IMG/VR virus record: IMGVR_UViG_3300021432_000008
Location: 12,941 to 76,940 of that record
Length of the DNA: 64,000 nt
Strand: one strand, 5' to 3'
From: a virus
The position numbers and the translations under genes are program-made. Shown here in pieces: positions 1-45,635 of the stretch. The notes beneath the pieces were generated by a model. It had not been told where the DNA came from. It searched no databases and saw only the letters and a program-made list of their open reading frames with translations. The first letter of the stretch is position 1, and each line of letters opens with the position of its first letter.

Positions 1-34
1 CGTGTTGTGAGGACAAGTTCGATAGCTACGTCTG

Positions 35-432
35 CCAGCAACTATCTCAAGGTTCCCTGAATCGTTGCCGGATGAGCGACTGATAGCCCCCTGGTCTTCT
101 TCGACGACCCGCAACGCTCTCAGGGTTCCCTCGATCGTTGCCGGGCCTATTCCGGAGATCCCAAGATGACCCGCAACTTTCTCAGGGCTCCCTTGATCGT
201 TGCTGGCCGCCGGCGATCGTCTCGAAGGTGTGCCGAATGCTGTACCCGCAACTTTCTCAGGGCTCCCTTGATCGTTGCTGGACGATCCTTTTACCACCTG
301 GAGATTATCGACCATGCAAGTCCCGCAACTTTCTCAGGGCTCCCTTGATCGTTGCTGGTTGTCTGGAACCCAGAACACCGCTGCCTGCATTGCCGCCCGC
401 AACTTTCTCAGGGCTCCCTTGATCGTTGCTGG
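35..432 (-). CRISPR. CRISPR array, 6 repeats of 37 bp and 5 spacers; may continue left of the window
   Basis: The + strand repeat CCCGCAACTTTCTCAGGGCTCCCTTGATCGTTGCTGG is identical at 170-206, 245-281, 322-358 and 396-432, and degenerate at 108-144 and 35-71. Unique spacers are 36, 25, 38, 40 and 37 nt. Degeneracy at the left end implies minus-strand transcription with the leader on the right. Confidence 0.97.
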
Positions 433-649
433 AGTCGCGGCCATAAAGGCATTGTTCCAGCCCATTTAAGCGACGTTTCGCGAGAGGCGCCCATCGGCAA
501 GCGATTGTGGCCTTGGTCGCGCTCAGCTTGGCGGTAGCTGGATGTTGGCAGCATTGGAGTTACGTCTCCGCGAGCGGTTCGCCGCAACCTATTTGGAACA
601 AACGGTGTCCATCAAGTGGGTTACGGCAAGATCCGCTCTGTCCATCGAT
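433..649 (-). promoter_or_regulatory. CRISPR leader / candidate structured ncRNA (tracr- or scout-like)
   Basis: Non-coding 217 bp between the conserved end of the array and the upstream ORF. Contains a long hairpin closed by GCCGTAACC (627-619) and GGTTGCGGC (589-581). Confidence 0.55.
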
Positions 650-1009
650 TCAAGCGCCACGCCGCTCGCGGAGTCGCTCTAGTTCAGCTGTCAGTTCCGC
701 CTCGCGCTGGCGGAGAGCGTCGTCGCTGCTCTCGCCGTCGTCGGCGATATTACATACCTCCTTCTGGGCGCCAACGCGCTGGCCGATCTCAATGGAACGC
801 AAGCCCGTGTTCACGCCGCGCAGCGACGTGTTCAGCTCTTTGCTCCCGTGGGCGCCGTGGAGCGCATCGAGCGAATGTCCGATAGCGAAGTTGGTAATGT
901 CCTGCACCGTGCGGATACCGCCGGATGCGACTTCGAGCGCCTTGCTCTTGCGCGGCCCGCCAGCAGTCGCCGGGTCGCCTTGACGTGTAATCGTGCCAGT
1001 CTCAGCCAT
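650..1009 (-). CDS. 119-aa hypothetical protein in the Cas12f-like operon, C-terminal coiled coil
   Basis: ATG at 1009 with an AAAGGGG RBS, 13 nt downstream of the effector stop. Sequence MAETGT...LRQREAELTAELERLRERRGA. Confidence 0.75.
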   Translation of the reverse strand: MAETGTITRQGDPATAGGPRKSKALEVASGGIRTVQDITNFAIGHSLDALHGAHGSKELNTSLRGVNTGLRSIEIGQRVGAQKEVCNIADDGESSDDALRQREAELTAELERLRERRGA

Positions 1010-1022
1010 TCGTCGTCCCCTT

Positions 1023-2177
1023 TCATGCAGCAGTCTCCTCTTCTCCGTCCGAAGCGCACCGGCAAACGATGCCGGTCGCCTTGAGCTTGTCCTTGAGTAG
1101 AGCCTTGAGCTTGAACCACGGGAACCGCTCAATGTGACCTTGTTCGAGGTCGCTGTACAGTACCGTGCCGACGCGGTTGCGTTGGGCAAAGCCAACAAGG
1201 TGCGCCGCTGTCTCGTGGAGCCACGAGGCCATGCGGTTGTGATGCTTTCGGCAGCAGCGGCCCCGCGAGCGGTTAATGGCGCCCAGCGCATCAGGATTGA
1301 GACGCCGCTCTGCCTTGCTGTCCTGCGCCAACCGGTCGAGTCTATCCTCATGGGCGGCAAGCCAGGCGAACGCTCGCTTCATGTGGTCGTTGTTGAGAAC
1401 CCATGCCTGCCGCCCATCCAACTCCGCTACCCAGAAGGCATTCGGGTCGGTGATCAGAGTTAATACGCGATCGCCCAACTTCTCACGGCAGGGCAACTCT
1501 GCCACCATCTTGACCAGCACGCGGGAATCCTCGCGAGCTTCCAGCCGCGGTCGGTGGCAACTCGGGGAGCAATGCTGCTCGCGAATAACCAGCTGGAACA
1601 TGGGCAGACTACCGTTGACCACCTGCCGGAATAGCCCCATCTGCCGGCCGAACTCGGCACCGCCACGAAGCTGGATGCCGACTCCGCCGTCTGGAAAGGA
1701 AAACTCCTGCGATGGCAAAACGACTTCGATACACGGTCTTCCATTGCGGTCCAGTCGTGCCTGTCGCCAAGCCTGCGCGTGGATTGGCCACGGGTAGGGA
1801 TAGCGGTAGGTACATGGCGCCTGCTTGCGATGCCAGATGACGTTCAGCCGTTCAGAAATGTACTTGCGCTCCACGTCGCGACAGATGGTGGAGGCACTTC
1901 TGCAAGCCCCCGTCCACCAGTTGCCCGGTTGCGTGAAGCCGAACGTCTCACTTGCGAGCCCGTACAATCCCTTGAGCCGCTTGCCGTTGATCTTCGGCAT
2001 CTTCGCTAGCTTGACCATGCCGGGCAGCCGAACCACGTCGTTGCGAAGGAGTTGCTGGACGCACCAGTTCGCAAGCATGGTCGCCTGCTTCCAGCACTCC
2101 CTGATCGTCTCCCACGCCTCGCGGGGTTCGACCACATTGACGGGCAACTCAAACGCTCTGACTACCGTGTCGCTCAT
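1023..2177 (-). CDS. Nuclease-dead Cas12f/TnpB-family RNA-guided DNA-binding protein, 384 aa
   Basis: ATG at 2177 with a GAGGAAGG RBS. Collinear with Cas12f1: TYRYPYP vs SYKRDIP; RuvC-I position VLTLITDP instead of MGIDLG; bridge helix NRMASWLHETAAHLVGFA; RuvC-II VGTVLYSDL instead of GTIQMEDL; FPWFKLKALLKDKLKATGI vs WTYYDLQQKIIYKAEEAGI. It stops before the zinc finger and RuvC-III, and is adjacent to the array. Confidence 0.85.
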   Translation of the reverse strand: MSDTVVRAFELPVNVVEPREAWETIRECWKQATMLANWCVQQLLRNDVVRLPGMVKLAKMPKINGKRLKGLYGLASETFGFTQPGNWWTGACRSASTICRDVERKYISERLNVIWHRKQAPCTYRYPYPWPIHAQAWRQARLDRNGRPCIEVVLPSQEFSFPDGGVGIQLRGGAEFGRQMGLFRQVVNGSLPMFQLVIREQHCSPSCHRPRLEAREDSRVLVKMVAELPCREKLGDRVLTLITDPNAFWVAELDGRQAWVLNNDHMKRAFAWLAAHEDRLDRLAQDSKAERRLNPDALGAINRSRGRCCRKHHNRMASWLHETAAHLVGFAQRNRVGTVLYSDLEQGHIERFPWFKLKALLKDKLKATGIVCRCASDGEEETAA

Positions 2178-2211
2178 CGCTTTTACCTTCCTCTCGCAGC
2201 GACCAGTCAAA

Positions 2212-2239
2212 ATCGTACACCCGGTTTTCGGCGTGTCAA
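2212..2239 (-). promoter_or_regulatory. sigma70-type promoter of the cas12f-like operon
   Basis: TTGACA (2239-2234), 16-nt spacer, TACGAT (2217-2212), about 35 nt upstream of the ATG at 2177. Confidence 0.6.
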
Positions 2240-2280
2240 TACCCTCCCAGCGGTGTCCGAATTGGCACGGGCATAGCCGC

Positions 2281-2323
2281 GCACGCTGGCGCACGGTTAC
2301 GCACGCTGGCGCACGGTTACGCA
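2281..2323. repeat. 20-bp tandem repeat, candidate operator
   Basis: GCACGCTGGCGCACGGTTAC occurs twice. The core CGCACGCTGGCGCAC recurs at 3308-3322. Confidence 0.8.
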
Positions 2324-2346
2324 GGGAGAAAAAAAGTGCGGGCCGG

Positions 2347-2625
2347 CTACTTTTTCTTTTCCGTCGCCTCTTCCTTCGTCCGCTCGATGCCTCGGAACAT
2401 GCTGTAGCGGACCAGATCAAGCCAGTGCCAAACGTGTGCGTCTCCCATGAAGGAGTGCGGCAGAAGGTCGGGATAGCGCTCCCGCTCCGCCCGGAACTCG
2501 CTGTCGGTGAGCCCGAGCCACTTCGCTGCTTCCTTCTTGTCTGACCAAATCTGGTCGGGAGCATCGATGTACCTCAGCACACGTCCGACCTCCTTCGCCG
2601 GAGTCGCGGGAGCGAGCCGACTCAT
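2347..2625 (-). CDS. small HTH (AlpA/Xis/Cro-like) DNA-binding protein
   Basis: HTH-like SDKKEAAKWLGLTDSEFR; divergent from the RHH gene. Confidence 0.6.
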   Translation of the reverse strand: MSRLAPATPAKEVGRVLRYIDAPDQIWSDKKEAAKWLGLTDSEFRAERERYPDLLPHSFMGDAHVWHWLDLVRYSMFRGIERTKEEATEKKK

Positions 2626-2756
2626 GGGCTTGCTACACCGAACATCGTAACGACGGTTAATGCTACAGTCAACACGGAAATTTCATTTTATGTAACGATG
2701 GACGCGGTATAATGATATAGCGTCGGCTACCGTTACATTAGCCTTGCGAGCGTACC
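2626..2756. promoter_or_regulatory. divergent promoter/operator region (genetic switch)
   Basis: AT-rich; TATAAT at 2708-2713; repeated GTAACG/CGTTAC half-sites near 2646, 2692 and 2732. Confidence 0.55.
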
Positions 2757-3008
2757 ATGAGCATTGCTACACTGGTCAATATGGCCAAGAAGCAGAAGAC
2801 TGATCCGCCCGAAAAGAAGCCTAGCGCTGTCATCCGTGTAGAGGGAGACATCGCGCACATGCTAAACACTATCGCATCGTGGCGGAAAAAGGACGTCCCC
2901 GACATCGCGTCCCCAATTCTCCGCGCGAAGGTTGAGCAGCTATTTGCGGAAGTGCATCGCGAAATGGGCAAGACGATCGGCACTCTTCACGACGACGAGA
3001 ACACCTAA
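2757..3008 (+). CDS. ribbon-helix-helix repressor-like protein
   Basis: SAVIRVEGDIAHMLNTIASWRKKDVPDIASPILR fits a strand-helix-helix pattern. Confidence 0.6.
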   Translation: MSIATLVNMAKKQKTDPPEKKPSAVIRVEGDIAHMLNTIASWRKKDVPDIASPILRAKVEQLFAEVHREMGKTIGTLHDDENT

Positions 3009-3268
3009 AACCTCAGCCCCGCCGCCCTCAGCGCCTCTTCCGCCTCGATCTGCTCCCGCCGCAGCGCGTGCGCCGACGGCACGGGCACGGCAGGCACGAC
3101 CGGCGTCAGCAGTGCCTCCACGTCAACGCGGCGCACGAGCAGACGAGTCCCGGCACGGCGAAGCGCGGGCAACTTGCCCTCGGAGACGAGTCGATAGATT
3201 GTGGCGACGTGGACGGACAGCAGGCGCGCCGCCGTCTTCGGGCTGATCAAATCGTTCGGGAGAGACAT
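3005..3268 (-). CDS. excisionase-family HTH_17 protein
   Basis: LISPKTAARLLSVHVATIYRLVSEGKLPALR; GGAGG RBS before the ATG at 3268. Confidence 0.85.
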   Translation of the reverse strand: MSLPNDLISPKTAARLLSVHVATIYRLVSEGKLPALRRAGTRLLVRRVDVEALLTPVVPAVPVPSAHALRREQIEAEEALRAAGLRF

Positions 3269-3517
3269 GACATGGGACCTCCATGTGGACCGCGAGCGCA
3301 TCCCTCCCGCACGCTGGCGCACACGAGCCGGCCGGGAGAGACGAGAGTATCCTGAAAGATGGGCACATGCAGATGGGCATGCAGAGAGTGAAACGCAGCA
3401 ACCCTACGTCGCCTTCTGGGCTTGGTCAAGGACATACGGGTGTCGCTCTTTCGCTTTCGGCAACCTGCTCCGCATTCGCTCGCGGAGCGTAAAATTGTGT
3501 TCGTGGAGGAATGAAGC

Positions 3518-6025: not shown

Positions 6026-7105
6026 TCATCCCAACCTACGGGCCACTTGCTTCGCCATCTCCAAGTCGGTTTGCTGGCCGTAGCCGTCCGTGACCTGAAT
6101 GCTCTTCTGGCCGAGATAGCTTCGAGCAAAATCCAGTCCCAGCGCCCGCGTCACCCTCTGTTTCGCCGCATGCCGGCACTGGTACGGATGCAGCTGCACG
6201 CCGGCCTCCTCCGCGGCCGCGCGCACGGCCTTCGTCAGCCCCCAGCGCGAGTACGGGCCCCGCTGGCCGACGAACACGAAGTCGTCGCCGTTCTTGCCCT
6301 CCAGCCACGGCGCCAGAACCTTCTGCGCGCTCGTGCCCATGACGATCTCGCGGACGTGCCCAAGATGCGCGGTCTTGTGCTTAGCGGGCCGAAATACCCA
6401 CTCCTCGCCAGCACGATCAACCTCGCACGCGCGCATCACGCGAACCTCGCCCGTGCGGCACCCGGTAAACCACATGAAGAGCAACATCGCCCGCGGCATC
6501 GGCTTGAGCCGCCGGCACACGGCGATGATTGCCGGCCACTCTGCGGGCCGCACGGGCTCCGTGCTGCGGTGCTGGCGGTCCTGCTTGCCGATGGGTCGCA
6601 ACGAGTGCAGGTGAGCCCATGAGCCTCTGGGAGCCAGCTTCAGACGCTCCAGCCGCCGCCAGATCGTCTTGATGCGGATGGTCTGCCGGTTGATGTGGTT
6701 GCGGCACCATCCCTTCTCGCCCATCGCCTTGCGGACGTCGTCCAGATCATCGATACCGAAGCCGTCCGTCGTCAGGTCGCGGTGGAGCGACAGCAGCACC
6801 TCGATCACGCGCTTGTAATGGCGGAACTCGTCGCGCTCGCCGTAGTGTCCCGTGGCCCACTCAAGCCACTTGGCGATGGCCCCGGAGATGGTCGGCCACG
6901 CTCCGGCGAGGATGCGAGGCGGCTCGCCCGGTTGCGGTTTGTCGCTCTCAGCCGCAGCGAGCCGGACCAGCAGAGCGGCGTATTCCTGCGCGTTGTCACC
7001 ACCGATGGGCCCGATGTAATAATCGTGCCCCCGCCAGCGGACCCGTTCTCGACCGCTGATATGGTGCGCCCGAGGTTGCGGCGGCCACTTCACCTTGCGT
7101 CCCAT
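6026..7105 (-). CDS. int: tyrosine recombinase / phage integrase
   Basis: TGCRTGE (Arg), KHKT (Lys), HPYQCRH, LGQ and TDGY (Tyr); N-terminal arm-binding region. Confidence 0.92.
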   Translation of the reverse strand: MGRKVKWPPQPRAHHISGRERVRWRGHDYYIGPIGGDNAQEYAALLVRLAAAESDKPQPGEPPRILAGAWPTISGAIAKWLEWATGHYGERDEFRHYKRVIEVLLSLHRDLTTDGFGIDDLDDVRKAMGEKGWCRNHINRQTIRIKTIWRRLERLKLAPRGSWAHLHSLRPIGKQDRQHRSTEPVRPAEWPAIIAVCRRLKPMPRAMLLFMWFTGCRTGEVRVMRACEVDRAGEEWVFRPAKHKTAHLGHVREIVMGTSAQKVLAPWLEGKNGDDFVFVGQRGPYSRWGLTKAVRAAAEEAGVQLHPYQCRHAAKQRVTRALGLDFARSYLGQKSIQVTDGYGQQTDLEMAKQVARRLG

Positions 7106-10244: not shown

Positions 10245-13200
10245 TTACTTGTACACCACGAGGTTGCTTGCCCATGCCTGCGGGAATTGACCGTTGAGTA
10301 CCGCCGCGACATTCGTGCTCGCCGCCGGTACAATCTGCCGGCCCTCCTGACACTCGGCGCTGTTCCCCGCGCCACCGATCGAACCGCTCTGCCCGCCCGT
10401 GAAGCTGTTGCCCCACGGGCGGAGTGGCGGCGGCTCCAGAATGAACGCTGCCGCCGCGTAAGAGCAGGCGGCGTCCGTCAGGATCGTTCCCGTGTTGGGC
10501 TGATTCCGGACGCCGTTGTTACCGCCTCCCTGATCGACGACGTTGAGGGCGAGCCCTGTCACCTGTTCGACGGTCATGAACATATTGCCCGTCGCACCGC
10601 CCGCCAGGGTCGCCTGTATCGTGACACCGACGGCTCCCAGCGGCGATGCGACAGAGAAGGTAGTCACGCTGCCGGATACCAGTCCGCCGATGCTGGGCAG
10701 CTGCTCGGTGGCGTCCACGGGCATCGTCGTACCTGAGTACGTACAGGAGACGGCAGCGTTCGACTCCCAGACGTAGACCTGCACGATGACCCGCGAGGCG
10801 GCAGAGAAGGTGAGCGCCGTCTTGCTGATCGTGTTGACGAAGGCGGCACCCGAAGACACCGGAGGCGTCTTGCCCACAGACACGATGCTGCACGCGCCGG
10901 AGCCCGAGCCCGAACCGCTCGCGGCGCAATCGCCCTGAGTCGCCGTCACCGTGACCGAGCCGTCGCCCAGGGTGTTGTTGCAGCAGCCGTCCGCGTTGCC
11001 GATGCCCATGAACTGGAACCCGGTCCAGGTGATGACCGCTGGAGGTCCGCAAGCGACCGTTGTGGAGGGGACGCCGACGCCCTTGACAACGCCGCCCAGC
11101 TGCATGTCGCAATTGACGCCGTTGATCTCCAGGTTGAGATAGTACGTCCCTTTGTCGCACCAGATAGTGCCCTGAGCGATATAGGCGCAGGTGCCGCTTC
11201 CCGAGCCGGAACCCGAACCGCTGCCACCAGCGCCGGCCAATTCAGGAGGGCAAGCCGGGAAGGTGTTGACACATCCGCCGGCAGTCCAGCCAGCGGGGTA
11301 GGAGACTGTGGCGGTGCAGGTGGGCAACACGAAGGACGGGGTCGGGCAGACGGTGCCGTAAATCGCGCAAAACTCGAACGGTACGGCCTGAGTGCAGAGC
11401 GCCTGTATGGGAAACGTGATGGGGAAAGCCGTGCAGGGGGCGTCGCCGGTACTCAGCAGAGTGCCGCCGCCGAAGATGCCTCCTGGACAGCCCGGAAGAC
11501 CCAAGCAGTCTCCGTCTCCGCCTTGCGGGTCGATCGGGCAGAAGAAGAGGGTGCCGTTGACGTTGTCGGCCGGAGAATTATCCTTGTGGCAGACATAGAC
11601 GAGGTAACCGATCCACGTCTTCGGGGTGCAGCCAGTTGTCGAGGTGCCGAGCTGGAAGCCGCTGAGACTAGCAACCGCTGCCCAGTTTTGCGAGGGCGAC
11701 ACGTTGCAATGGGCGCTGCTGGTGGCGACGAGGTTGTAGCTCGATCGGTCGAAGACAATGCCTGGCGTGCAGGAACCAATAGACGCCACAAGGACGGCCG
11801 GCATCGCTGCCGGACAGCATACGTCTGCCGCGATGCAGCAGTCCAGCCCGAAAGAATCTCCCGTGCAAGTGCAGGGCGTGCTGACGAGCGTCGGCGGCAG
11901 CAACCATGTCCCATCGTCCTGCTCTATAAACGTCAGGCACACGCCGTCCAGGCATGGGCAGCCCGACACGTTCGCCAGGCACACGCACAGGTCATCGGAG
12001 AAGTTGCAGCATACGGGTGACGGGCAGCACGGCGGGTTGACGAAGCACGTCTTCGTCGGGATACCCGTCCAGGTATCGGTGCAGGTGACCTCGACAATCA
12101 CGTCAAAGCCGGCGCCGCTGCCGAATTCTCCCGAGCCCGACCCGCTGTGCGGGCGGATGCACGTCGCCGTCTGGCTGCACAGGTAGCGGGAGGACAGCAC
12201 GGGGGGCGGCGGGATACACAGGAGCGTGCAGGTGTTCGGCTCCGTCACGAAAACAAAGTCGGCGCCGATCGGGACAGGCGTCAGGTAGACGTTGTCGAAC
12301 GCGATCACGGTGCCGGGAGCGAGGTTGCCGATCACCTGCCCGACGACCGTCTGGATGATGCCCTGTCCCACTCCGGCGATGGCACCAACGCGGGCGGGGA
12401 TGAACGTCGTGGCCTTCGCCGTCCCCGTTGCCGGCTGACAGCCCTTCCCTGGACCGAAGTAGTTGCCGATCAGGAGCGTTTGCGAGTGATCGAGGTACGG
12501 GCCGCGCTCCACTCTGGTAGTGACACGGTTGGCGTCCGCGACGTATTCCGCCAACGCGACGATGCCATCGAAGACCCACGGGACGCAACCCGAATAGCAG
12601 GCGTCGATGCCCTCCGCCATCCACCGATACCAGTCGGACGCCGCCTGCTTCGCCAACGCCAGAAGCGTCGCCTCGTTGGTCGGTATCGTCGCCGGAGGCG
12701 TGTACGTGGCCGCCAGCGACGTGCGTAGCGTCTTGGTGCCGTTGAACCCGGCTGCCGTGCCCATCTCAGAGAGAGACAAGCTGGTGAGCGTCACCTGCTC
12801 AATCCACGTCGGGCCGCCCTGACCGGGGAACGTGACTGTGACGGATGACGGCAGGATCGTGTTCAGGTCCGTCTGTGCGTAGGGTACGAGGTCGAAGACG
12901 TCGCCCTCCAGCCGCACGGCGAGGTTCAGGTTCGCGGCGAAGGCTGCCTGCCCAGAAGTCGCGTTGAGCGCCAGCACGGTCCCGTCAGTCCTGCGAACTA
13001 TTCGCTGGCCGCAGGAGAACGCCACGGCATCGAGCAAGAGTGGCAGTGTCGGGTAGTCGAGCGTCAACTCGTTCGACGGCACGAGGTAGGCGGCGGGAAC
13101 CGTGTCCGCTGTGATGGTGATTCCGAGGGCGGTCGCGATCTGGGCATAGAGCTGCGCCCATGTCGTCGTCGTGCCATCGACGGTGATCTTGCCGGCGCGG

Positions 13201-41845: not shown

Positions 41846-42105
41846 CGCAAGAACCTCCACCAGAGAAACAGTTGTATCGCGGCCCCAGCGAGCGCACCGG
41901 CCAGTAACCCCGGCCATGCCCTCCGCCAGAGGAGCCTAAGGGTGGATTCCGTGGGCTTAACGAAGTGTGGCACGTAGCCCTTCGGCGGTGCGTCCGGTAT
42001 CGGTCGCGGTGGTATCATCACTGCCGGTCCTCTCAGCGGCGCAATCGCTCCCTCGGGTTTGTCGATGCGCTCGCCCTTGGCGTTCACGTAGACTGGCTGG
42101 CTCAT
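41842..42105 (-). CDS. small protein with C-terminal transmembrane helix
   Basis: AWPGLLAGALAGAAIQLFLWW. Confidence 0.55.
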   Translation of the reverse strand: MSQPVYVNAKGERIDKPEGAIAPLRGPAVMIPPRPIPDAPPKGYVPHFVKPTESTLRLLWRRAWPGLLAGALAGAAIQLFLWWRFLR

Positions 42106-45100
42106 TGAAATATCCCCCACTTTTTGAACACGTCGCTGCACTTCGGAAAGCGCTTCACGATCTCCGCTCGGTCGGTGTCCGTCCCGTGGACCAGCCGGAA
42201 GAACTCCGCGAAGCCCTCACGCGGCAGCGTCTTCGCGTAGTCCGACAGCCCGCCCGGCTTGATCTCGCTCTGGTACGCCTCCTGCCACTCAGGCGAAGAC
42301 GAGATCTCGTACTCCGGCCCATCGACGGCATGACCGAACTCGTGGGCGTACAGTTCGCGCGCCGGCTGGCCTCTTGGCGTATCGCCGTCGAGGTGGAGGC
42401 GCTTCCGCGAGCCGTCGTAACCGCCGCCAGCGATCTTGCCGGCGAACGCTGCCAGCTGCGAGGGCGGCAGGGCGCCCTTCGTGAGATCCTGACACGAGCC
42501 ATAGAAGCGATACTCTCTTGCACCTTTGTTGAATCGCTCAAGAGCCTTCGCGGGCAGGGCGTGAAGGACCTGGCTTGCAGTAGCCCGGCACGCCTGTCGC
42601 TTCGTTTCGCCAAGAGCGGCATGGCGGTTGAGGGCATCGTCCAGGCGGAAGTGGGCGGCTTCCAGCGAATGGGCGCGGGAGGGAGAGGGCTTGTCGGGTT
42701 CCGGCTCGGCGGCGGGCTTTGTGGGCTCGGTGCGCTTCATCAGGTCCATCATGGAGGAGAGGGAGCCAGCGCCTTCCGCGACGGGGTCAACCTCTCCTTT
42801 CGGCTTCCACTCGCTTTCGGTTTCTCCTCCGGTCGGCGCCTTCTCGTACCCGGCTTTCGTCAGGGCATGGGCATAGATGCGTCGGCGTCTTTCCTCTGTC
42901 ACGCCGTAGTGGATGCCCAGGCCGGCTTTTGCTGCCTTGCCCAGAAACGTCTGGAACTTGTGCATCAGATCAACAGTGCCCGGTTGAAGTTTCTTATTGG
43001 TCACGTCATACGAGGCATCCTGGGTGTATTGGATATACACCGCCTTATCTTGCGGCAGGAATTCCAGGCCAAGTTTACGACCAGCTTCCTCGACAATCAC
43101 GTCATCGTCCCCGGAGTCGGGACTGACAGACTCGCCGAACACTTCCTTCACGGCAGACTGGAATGCCCGTCGTGCTTCCTTCCTCTCGGCACGGCGTTTC
43201 TCCTTTTCCTCCTCCGTCCCCGACCGCCGTTTTTCCTTGTCGGCCTTCCGGCTATCGATGGACTGCTTCAGTTCCTTCCACCGCGCCATGGCGGCGTCAG
43301 CCTTCGCAATCGCATCGTCGGGCTGAGCCTTCTGCTCCACCTTCGCCTTCTCTTCCGGCGTCGCCTTCTCCATCACGTCGCCGGGGATGAACTCGCCGCC
43401 CGTGTAGAACGTACCGCCAATCGTGACACCACCCGCCGGAGCATGGTGCGCCGCGAACCGCAGCACCATCTCGTCAGCCAGCTCGCCCTTGCCGCACTTG
43501 CGCAAGTGGTTCACCACTCTGGCCAGCCGGGCGTGACGCAGGCTGACGGGGGCGAAGGGCGGAACCGCTGGCCGCATGGATGCGGAAGGGGCAGCGCTCG
43601 ATGAAGGGGTGACGGCGCCGGAGTCGGGGGCCTCGGTGGGAGGCTCCACGACCACGTCCGGCTTCACCGTGTCGTCTTGCTCCCGTGCATACCGCAGTGC
43701 CTCCGTCGCCTCCCGCATGGCCCGCAGAGCGTCGAGGAAGTCGCCCCCGCCTCCGGGCTGGCCGTTGGGCTGTTCGTCTCCTGGCGCCCCCTCTGGCGAT
43801 GGTGAGCCTCCACCACCTCCCATCAATGCCGCCAGAGGGTCAGCCCCACCGCCAGCCCCCGGCGGCCCACCGCCGGGGGCACCGCCCGCGGGCTGCGGCG
43901 GTTGCACCAGCTCGTCGCCGTCCGCCGGCTTGCCGAACCCAGCCGCGTCGCGCATGTCGTCGGCGCGGGTGGGAATGCCCATGTCCACGAGTGTCTTGCC
44001 CGAAGTGACCTTCTCTTGGTCCATCTTCGAGCCGTGATCGTAGACAAACGACACGGGGAAGTCGCTTATCGTCTCGGGAAAGCTGTACTCCTGCATGATG
44101 CTGACCATGCCGGGGTTGTACGTGTCCCCCGTCATGCTCATGGCGTGCCAGGCTGCATCCTGGCGAGCAATGGCTTCTTTGGTGTCCTGCTGAAACTCCG
44201 AAGACGACTTGTTGCTGTGCCCATCGGCCGACGTGGCACTGGCGCTGCCCTCCTGCCCCACGACGTAGCGCTCCATCTGCTTGTCGAAATACTCCACCAG
44301 CTTGATCATCTCCCCCGCGCCGGCCGTGGGCACCTCCAGACGCTCCAGCGTGGTACTTCGCTCCTGTCCGGGGATGACGGGAACGAAGAGGTTGGCGCGG
44401 TCCGACTGGTTCTTGGCCGCCGTCTGTGCGGCGTTCAGCGCTTCCACGTTGCCGGACGGGTAGGTCCAGATGTTGACGCCCAGCCCTATGCGGTCATAGA
44501 ACTCAGCAACCCTGCCAAGGAAGTCTTTCTTGAGGAAGTCGCACCAGAACAGGTGCGAGCGGATGCCGACGCCGTGGATGGCGTCCCCCTGCATCGAGCC
44601 CAGGAAGAAGTCGCGGTCCTCCATGAACTGGTAGTGCAAGAGGAAACGCTTCCGCCATGTTCCGCGCAGGGAGAGTGCCCTTCCCACGGTCGTGTTGACG
44701 ATGGAAGCGTTGGGGTCGAGGTGTCTCAACTCGTTCGTGTAGGCGCTGTTCACGAGGACGTAGGGGGTGCCGTCGAGCTGGTGGCCGATCTTGTCTCCCT
44801 GGACCTCCCACGCCTGCAAGACGCTGAGAGCCTTTCGCTTCTTCGCTCCCGTGCCGAACTGCTGATCCGGGTTGGGCAGCCCCATCTCGTCGAGGCGGGC
44901 GCCGTAGGCTTTCTCCGCTCCACGATCGGCGGGATCTTCAAGCATGCGCTCGCGGAGGTAGCGGAGCACGGGGTCAATGCGCATCATGGCCTGTGCAGCA
45001 GCGGGAGCGGGTGCCGGCTGCTGCTGGGTAGGCTGTTTGCCCTTGTCCTTCTTCGCGTCGAAGTCGTCGCGGACATCCGTCTTGCCCCACTCGATCTGCA

Positions 45101-45635
45101 CGCCCTGCCGGCCGAACCAGATGGCCCAGTAGTGCGACGGGATGATCCGCGGCATCTGGGTGACGGCCTTCATCTGGCGCGTGAGGCTGTCCTTGACATG
45201 GACCTGCCAGGGGTCCTTCTCGTCGGGCACTTCCAGGTGCCACTTGCGGGACGATACCGCCAGCATGCGCTCCTGAAGCAAGCCGCGAAGGTAGACGTCG
45301 TTGAGCATGTCAACAGCGTCCTTGCGGCCGTGGCGCATCGCCTCATCGTACATGGTCTGCCAGAACGTGTAGTCGCCGCCCGTGGTTCTCGCGACGAAGA
45401 GGTAGCCGCCCGGCAGCGCCAGGCCGCCGGGGTGGGCGTTGCCGTCTGGGACCTTGCGATCGGAGCGGATGGGCCGGCCCATGCCGTCCACCAGCTGGGG
45501 CGCTCCGCCTGCTGAGATGTGCTGGAGCGCCATGTCGGAGAAGGCGTTGCCCACGGACACCTTGCCCTGCGGGTAGATGCCCGGCTCCGTGAAGGAGTGC
45601 GTCGGCTGCTGGAGTGTCGAGCGGGAGCGGGCCAT
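42102..45635 (-). CDS. portal protein (Mu gp29/DUF935-like) fused to an ATLF-like zinc metallopeptidase
   Basis: LQERMLAVSSRKW, AIWFGRQGVQIEW and YFDKQMERYVVGQ portal motifs; C-terminal YAHEFGHAVD...SDYA...EGFAE. Confidence 0.85.
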   Translation of the reverse strand: MARSRSTLQQPTHSFTEPGIYPQGKVSVGNAFSDMALQHISAGGAPQLVDGMGRPIRSDRKVPDGNAHPGGLALPGGYLFVARTTGGDYTFWQTMYDEAMRHGRKDAVDMLNDVYLRGLLQERMLAVSSRKWHLEVPDEKDPWQVHVKDSLTRQMKAVTQMPRIIPSHYWAIWFGRQGVQIEWGKTDVRDDFDAKKDKGKQPTQQQPAPAPAAAQAMMRIDPVLRYLRERMLEDPADRGAEKAYGARLDEMGLPNPDQQFGTGAKKRKALSVLQAWEVQGDKIGHQLDGTPYVLVNSAYTNELRHLDPNASIVNTTVGRALSLRGTWRKRFLLHYQFMEDRDFFLGSMQGDAIHGVGIRSHLFWCDFLKKDFLGRVAEFYDRIGLGVNIWTYPSGNVEALNAAQTAAKNQSDRANLFVPVIPGQERSTTLERLEVPTAGAGEMIKLVEYFDKQMERYVVGQEGSASATSADGHSNKSSSEFQQDTKEAIARQDAAWHAMSMTGDTYNPGMVSIMQEYSFPETISDFPVSFVYDHGSKMDQEKVTSGKTLVDMGIPTRADDMRDAAGFGKPADGDELVQPPQPAGGAPGGGPPGAGGGADPLAALMGGGGGSPSPEGAPGDEQPNGQPGGGGDFLDALRAMREATEALRYAREQDDTVKPDVVVEPPTEAPDSGAVTPSSSAAPSASMRPAVPPFAPVSLRHARLARVVNHLRKCGKGELADEMVLRFAAHHAPAGGVTIGGTFYTGGEFIPGDVMEKATPEEKAKVEQKAQPDDAIAKADAAMARWKELKQSIDSRKADKEKRRSGTEEEKEKRRAERKEARRAFQSAVKEVFGESVSPDSGDDDVIVEEAGRKLGLEFLPQDKAVYIQYTQDASYDVTNKKLQPGTVDLMHKFQTFLGKAAKAGLGIHYGVTEERRRRIYAHALTKAGYEKAPTGGETESEWKPKGEVDPVAEGAGSLSSMMDLMKRTEPTKPAAEPEPDKPSPSRAHSLEAAHFRLDDALNRHAALGETKRQACRATASQVLHALPAKALERFNKGAREYRFYGSCQDLTKGALPPSQLAAFAGKIAGGGYDGSRKRLHLDGDTPRGQPARELYAHEFGHAVDGPEYEISSSPEWQEAYQSEIKPGGLSDYAKTLPREGFAEFFRLVHGTDTDRAEIVKRFPKCSDVFKKWGIFQ

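Follow-up and report, generated by a model that had tools for sequence, protein, structure and literature searches.

Among nuclease-dead type V effectors, Cas12k of the type V-K CAST systems works together with TniQ/TnsC and with the host ribosomal protein S15, a small helical RNA binder. The dCas12f-sigmaE pairs are RNA-guided transcription systems of Bacteroidota (PMC13472631; bioRxiv 10.1101/2025.06.10.658880; predicted in PMC10691335), in which the CTD of sigmaE binds and complements the truncated RuvC of dCas12f (bioRxiv 10.1101/2025.06.10.658880; PMC10691335). As presented in Extended Data Fig. 1a,b of PMC13472631, there is also an array-linked dCas12f cluster from Chitinophagaceae, whose guides are directed against efflux promoters and whose members are proposed repressors. 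A survey of TnpB and Cas12 proteins named other partners (PMC10691335), and the papers on dCas12f mention none of the kind described here. Type V effectors are carried by phages as well: Thermus Lalka phages encode Cas12r, a nuclease with an active RuvC, 564 aa in length and independent of a tracrRNA, for which no accessory gene was described and whose spacers point at integrative elements (bioRxiv 10.64898/2026.04.20.719267).

Here, a different candidate partner is described, which is encoded behind a predicted nuclease-dead Cas12f-like gene in a DNA stretch of 64,000 nucleotides (positions 12,941 to 76,940 of IMGVR_UViG_3300021432_000008, a virus record of 76,940 bp), hereafter called the window. 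An earlier reading of the sequence without database searches (the sequence-only reading) had singled out this 119-aa gene as a candidate novel cofactor or regulator.

Organization of the Locus

Judging from its predicted genes, the carrier is a temperate phage, with an excisionase-type HTH_17 protein (3005-3322), a tyrosine integrase (6026-7105), and a Mu-type portal (42102-45635); the CRISPR operon lies no more than 5 kb from the integration module. The portal ORF also matched a metalloprotease-type domain model at its C-terminal end, although below threshold (21 bits, against a cut-off of 27 bits). In a soil metatranscriptome library from another study, contigs 100% identical across positions 1-3400 of the window were found, for which DNA carry-over is possible, and one metatranscriptome contig of 1161 nt runs from the RNA region through the small gene and across the 3' third of the effector gene. 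The features of the locus are as follows, in the order in which they are read.

2212-2239, minus strand: promoter-like site TTGACA-16-TACGAT (consensus scan, 10/12 matches), upstream of the effector gene
1023-2177, minus strand: P0002, predicted nuclease-dead, C-terminally truncated Cas12f-like effector of 384 aa (AF2, Foldseek, and profile)
832-1026, minus strand: tail ORF of 64 codons, in the -1 frame relative to the effector, homologous to the basic C-terminal tail of long-form effectors
1017-1022, minus strand: SD of the small gene, AAGGGG, separated from the ATG by 7 nt (sequence inspection)
650-1009, minus strand: P0001, gene of a 119-aa helical protein of a new family, with codons 1-59 overlapping the tail ORF in another frame
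433-640, minus strand: structured, conserved non-coding RNA that lies behind the small gene and ahead of the first repeat and resembles a tracrRNA or scaffold
35-432, minus strand: CRISPR array of six 37-nt repeats with spacers of 25-40 nt, the two repeats farthest from the genes being degenerate

This arrangement of promoter-like site, effector, tail ORF, small gene, scaffold RNA, and array on the minus strand resembles an operon, and no terminator-like site was detected anywhere in positions 1-2800. A 20-nt unit, GCACGCTGGCGCACGGTTAC, occurs twice in tandem at 2281-2320, just upstream of the promoter-like site, and could be an operator. The small gene had been placed between the dead Cas12f gene and its array, and the order of the three (1023-2177, 650-1009, and 35-432) bears this out; however, about 200 nt of conserved structured RNA, overlooked in that reading and not a plain leader, come before the first repeat.

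The RNA could be aligned across the window and four other loci (L004, L005, L012, and L014) whose effectors are only 32-45% identical, and compensatory changes were present in 17 of the 35 consensus pairs. It matched no Rfam family and is probably a tracrRNA or scaffold. With regard to the array, no spacer target was found in the 76.9-kb contig and no exact 24-mer match in IMG/VR. Translation of the spacer at 207-244 on the minus strand gives a motif similar to box II of tyrosine recombinases (..IRHTFE..), and the phage's own integrase (6026-7105) differs from this spacer at the box II motif.

A Nuclease-Dead Cas12f Effector

The AF2 model of P0002 (pLDDT 88.6) had AsCas12f (8j12) as its top Foldseek match (E 4e-16, TM 0.62), and dCas12f (9n9c) was matched as well. 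Similarly, the best PDB sequence match of the effector-family profile was the 'nuclease-deactivated Cas12f' 9n9c (E 3.7e-5), and P0002 itself had no significant match in Pfam (OrfB_IS605, E 0.16). The Cas12f fold, with WED, REC, and RuvC, is present in the model, and neither the D-E-D triad nor the zinc-finger (TNB) region is intact. The position of the RuvC-II Glu of active Cas12f is occupied by Ser342 in P0002 and varies across the family, and the protein terminates where the zinc finger of Cas12f starts; RuvC-III and the zinc finger are both missing. The assignment of P0002 as a dead Cas12f, already made from the sequence alone, is thus supported by the model, by Ser342, and by the absence of RuvC-III and zinc finger.

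The effector family comprises about 60 clusters, all of them metagenomic. Arrays of a similar period follow the effector relatives in L004, L005, L009, L012, L014, L020, L021, and L034, which indicates a CRISPR-linked family of dead effectors. In several more distant effectors (L004, L006, L008, L009, L021, and L034), an N-terminal extension with two CxxC pairs, which is absent from P0002, was observed and is likely to be a zinc finger; in most of these CxxC-extended effectors, there is neither tail nor small gene, and RNA and array come directly after the effector. In addition, L033:1-520 contains a degraded effector 3' end and tail with several frame breaks, indicating that some copies of the system decay.

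A Small Protein of a New Family

The small gene has the properties of a genuine protein-coding gene. Its ATG is at 1007-1009 and the effector TGA at 1023-1025, in agreement with the 13-nt distance given in the sequence-only reading, which had also credited the gene with its own ribosome-binding site; this site was recovered as AAGGGG, and an equivalent SD together with an ATG was present in all seven loci checked. GC content by codon position (0.70/0.51/0.73) is like that of the effector and neighbouring genes, and within codons 60-119, which overlap with nothing else, the third codon position varies most. Taken together with the 25 relatives described below, codon-position GC, conserved start signals, and third-position variability show that the 119-codon ORF is a real gene. 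The conserved RNA does not explain the conservation of this ORF, as it starts about 14 nt past the stop codon of the small gene.

Searches among 1.84 billion representative proteins recovered 25 relatives of P0001 at E ≤1e-3, one of which, the 331-aa repetitive match P0079, was dropped as a junk translation; four closer relatives came from a word-indexed search. These relatives (about 25) are all metagenomic, the members of the family having 83-128 aa, and GenBank phages and 185,579 species genomes yielded no relatives. In the family alignment of 29 sequences, the N-terminal domain is conserved, the linker varies in length, and conservation is strong in a motif of the C-terminal helix (ELTAELE..RE.R). 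Conservation is highest in the C-terminal helix and residues 60-85 and poor in residues 1-21. Short forms also exist (L012:1471-1800, L014:5074-5313, P0069, and P0072), which end after the N-terminal helical domain and do not have the conserved C-terminal helix.

The AF2 model built from the 29 sequences (pLDDT 74) consists of a disordered stretch (residues 1-21), helices at 23-29, 35-50, and 56-79, and a long C-terminal helix at 92-118 with a pLDDT of about 95. The helical core and acidic linker that had been read from the sequence were both recovered, with a pI of 4.05 for the linker and of about 8.3 for the near-neutral folded part.

No Pfam, NCBIfam, PHROG, or PADLOC family was assigned to P0001, although Pfam and NCBIfam were scanned at E values up to 1. 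Profile search produced no PDB match, and Foldseek against PDB and BFVD gave nothing usable; the rows of the S15 type were weak (E 1.7-6, TM 0.36-0.40 by query). Matches in a VIA-wide fold search were generic helical ones (best Z 6.1), and the nearest feature-space neighbours in the ESM Atlas were unnamed phage and Planctomycetota proteins, all with scores below 0.9. The 29 family members scanned contained no sigma family, including sigma region 2 and region 4 domains, and no HTH family of regulators such as Aca-like, Xre, or excisionase proteins at E ≤1, and fold searches for the latter gave nothing specific. Neither a TniQ nor an AAA+ TnsC domain was found by Pfam in P0001, which also matched none of the curated models for Cas accessory or adaptation proteins (Cas1, Cas2, Cas4, Csn2, and others) in NCBIfam and PADLOC. 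Hence, the earlier impression that no Cas, sigma factor, or Tns motif could be recognised was confirmed in Pfam, NCBIfam, and PADLOC, and by these searches the P0001 family is a new, unnamed protein family.

Overlap with the Effector Tail

Phages are known to carry overlapping gene pairs, such as Rz/Rz1 of lambda and the overlapping genes of phiX174. In the locus described here, the description of the small gene from the sequence alone was correct as far as it went, but a third frame, the conserved tail of the effector, had been overlooked, with which codons 1-59 of the small gene overlap. Long-form relatives of the effector (430-460 aa) have a conserved basic C-terminal tail with a motif ending in SHP.V, and this tail is conserved among them down to 30% identity. 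In the window, its profile matches the separate 64-codon frame (E 1.4e-10), whose ATG overlaps the effector stop (ATGA), which has GAGGAG 8 nt upstream, and whose predicted product has a pI of 12.

In most relatives (L001, L002, L005, L010, L012/13, and L014), the tail is fused in frame with the effector body, whereas it is shifted by -1 in the window and L004 and by +1 in L003. The small gene occupies the third frame and overlaps the tail-coding end of the effector by 97-214 nt across loci, and its frame relation to the tail is identical in every locus. In the lineages with a shifted frame, the tail may be either a split micro-protein or a relic that is retained through the constraint on the small gene itself. 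Stand-alone tail ORFs had no match in the protein database, a null result that bears neither way.

Several other explanations were considered and set aside. Programmed frameshifting that would join body and tail is unlikely, because there is no slippery heptamer and the shift is inconsistent in direction, being -1 in two lineages and +1 in a third. Contigs from a DNA run and from the RNA library of another study agree exactly at the junction, which is therefore not an assembly artefact. A remnant of the zinc finger or RuvC-III of Cas12f was also rejected as the origin of the tail, which does not align to Cas12f.

Both frames are conserved, the small-protein frame in 29 sequences and the tail frame across long-form effectors, which is the pattern of a dual-coding gene pair. 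In the overlap region, GC content by codon position favours the small-gene frame over the tail frame. Within codons 22-41, constraint is weakest at the third position of the tail frame rather than at that of the small-gene frame (in a small sample), which suggests that both frames are under constraint in this part. On these predicted frames, the 5' half of the small gene appears to be dual-coded with the basic tail of the effector.

Linkage and Co-Inheritance with the Effector

Effector-based retrieval yielded 33 metagenome loci and one IMG/VR contig. The small-protein profile matched the frame immediately behind the effector in the window and in L001, L002, L004, L005, L010, and L014, together with the short form in L012/13 and a weak match in L003. 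All eight loci at which the small gene could be read in DNA have it directly behind an effector relative (the short form of L012/13 being counted). Nine further family members lie on contigs of the same size as one that carries an effector relative, and the remaining ones are mostly on contigs too short for linkage to be judged. No unlinked copy of the small gene was seen among about 25 representatives, most of the remaining contigs being short.

On a quick effector tree, the presence of the small gene required 2 changes, compared with 6.3 when labels were shuffled, and the loci in which no sign of the small gene was found despite sufficient downstream DNA all fall into one effector clade. Arrays have been kept in the effector clade of L006, L008, L009, L020, L021, and L034, which has neither tail nor small gene. 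Tail and small gene are present or absent together across loci, and the absence of both from this clade implies that a cassette of about 400 bp was gained or lost as a unit. It also follows that the small protein is not a universal core part of the system.

Pairwise distances of 14 effector-small protein pairs were correlated (Mantel r 0.60, a value reached in none of 5000 permutations), the small protein co-diverging with effectors at about 33 to 66% identity. Effector and small gene have been passed on jointly, even among relatives whose identity drops to about 33%. Co-occurrence with the effector had been named beforehand as a check and gave a positive answer in both adjacency and distance correlation. 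In addition, the small protein was the only flanking protein family conserved across loci, the other flanking genes being different, and the flanks of 35 loci contained no conserved transposition gene. However, overlap with the effector gene by itself forces co-inheritance, and linkage is therefore weaker evidence for a shared function than it appears. Co-occurrence, co-inheritance, and the absence of known-family matches all support the proposal of a candidate novel cofactor or regulator.

Possible Roles of the Small Protein

Our preferred reading, for which we estimate a probability of roughly 0.5, is that P0001 may be a dedicated accessory subunit of the guide-RNA complex formed by the nuclease-dead Cas12f of this temperate phage. 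The constant place of its gene behind the dead Cas12f gene and the DNA that it shares with the tail suggest that it is probably a dedicated helper. As such, the small protein would be made from the effector transcript with the use of its own SD and would join the effector-RNA complex. Docking would most likely take place on the basic tail or on the truncated RuvC lobe, the region from which zinc finger and RuvC-III have disappeared, a proposal that is based on analogy to dCas12f-sigmaE and on the tight genetic coupling. The small protein might then stabilise or dimerise the complex via its long C-terminal helix, or might be a handle for a host factor, and the complex could bind the DNA of rival mobile elements without cutting it, resulting in silencing. 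The predicted complex of effector and P0001 had a score of 0.01, which gives no answer and speaks neither for nor against binding. Several observations count against a subunit: the near-neutral folded part does not look like an obvious nucleic-acid binder, several family members (L012, L014, P0069, and P0072) are without the C-terminal helix, one whole effector clade has arrays but no small gene, and the gene overlap weakens the argument from linkage.

Alternatively, P0001 could be a small regulator outside the effector complex, one that might act, for example, on the expression of neighbouring lysogeny genes or on that of the operon or array, and that would be linked to the effector only through gene overlap. 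Such a regulator would agree with a small helical protein adjoining the integrase and excisionase region and with the 20-nt tandem duplicate upstream of the operon promoter-like site, and gene overlap would be enough to enforce the linkage; however, no HTH or other DNA-binding family was detected in the 29 members, the folded part is not basic, and the effector-small gene pair remains constant while the flanking genes change between loci, so that we consider this role unlikely. Another possibility is an unrelated phage accessory gene (for example, for host takeover, anti-defence, or exclusion) that lodged between effector and RNA and was then retained. Although small orphan helical proteins are abundant in phage early regions and the ESM Atlas neighbours of P0001, at scores below 0.9, are unnamed phage and Planctomycetota proteins, the conserved position, the co-divergence with effectors at 33 to 66% identity, the lack of any copy found away from an effector, and the joint coming and going of tail and small gene make this origin quite unlikely.

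It is also conceivable that the tail is the functional element and that the 119-codon frame is mostly incidental to it, or else a recently overprinted gene of little function, whose conservation would stem from the tail frame and the downstream RNA. The weak constraint at the third position of the tail frame in codons 22-41 and the poorly conserved, disordered residues 1-21 could be read in this way. Nevertheless, the best conserved parts of the protein, the C-terminal helix and residues 60-85, lie beyond the tail ORF, where the third position of the small gene varies most; codon-position GC suits the small-gene frame and not that of the tail; SD and ATG are found in all loci; and the conserved RNA begins only past the stop codon. 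We therefore regard this explanation as improbable and as the least favoured of the alternatives.

Returning to P0001 as an accessory subunit, a more far-reaching proposal can be formulated, which at present appears doubtful. According to it, P0001 was overprinted on the 3' end of the effector gene, would replace the zinc finger and RuvC-III in trans, and would couple the complex on its DNA target to a host machine, for example RNA polymerase. The phage might thereby gain a switch that can be programmed against rival integrating elements, which would represent a second, independent route to the output of dCas12f-sigmaE.

Comparison with Known Systems

The closest resemblance is to dCas12f-sigmaE, whose dCas12f (9n9c) is the best PDB sequence match of the effector family noted above. 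In both cases, a Cas12f homolog stops after the last RuvC strand, is without zinc finger and RuvC-III, and stands in an operon with one dedicated partner (predicted to be so here). In contrast to the sigma partners, which have about 190-265 aa and an extra C-terminal domain, the partner described here has 119 aa, and no sigma domain occurs in the 29 members of its family. The locus here has retained both a scaffold RNA of its own and a normal CRISPR array, unlike dCas12f-sigmaE; the carrier is a soil temperate phage rather than a Bacteroidota chromosome; and the effector family has a basic tail of its own, which is predicted to be dual-coded with the partner gene. The array-linked dCas12f cluster of PMC13472631 likewise places a nuclease-dead Cas12f, proposed to be a repressor, beside CRISPR arrays, and a partner protein is not mentioned in the text on that cluster.

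Cas12k shares with the present system a dead type V effector and a small partner, the latter being a candidate here, whereas transposition genes are not found nearby, the effector is far smaller, and the likeness of P0001 to S15 amounts to weak Foldseek rows with E values above 1. As in Cas12r, a miniature type V effector is borne by a phage with a short array and without adaptation genes, and one spacer here is similar to an integrase motif; unlike Cas12r, the effector is predicted to be nuclease-dead and is accompanied by a tracrRNA-like RNA and a candidate accessory gene. With regard to gene overlap, two conserved proteins are predicted to be encoded by one DNA stretch in different frames, as in lambda Rz/Rz1 and phiX174, but the overlap here joins the tail of a CRISPR effector to a putative partner, and the tail has been split from the effector body in some lineages.

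P0001 is thus a third partner candidate for dead type V effectors, unrelated to either TniQ/TnsC/S15 of Cas12k or sigmaE of dCas12f, and belongs to a tiny family found only beside one clade of dead Cas12f, on phage-like DNA that still has a CRISPR array. If P0001 binds the effector, the truncated RuvC lobe would be completed in trans by a protein other than a sigma factor, and the pair (384 + 119 aa) might serve as a DNA binder of two proteins that is programmable and very compact. The locus would also offer a clear case in which to study gene birth by overprinting in a CRISPR system, with the 5' half of the partner predicted to be dual-coded with the effector tail and with the tail split off repeatedly.
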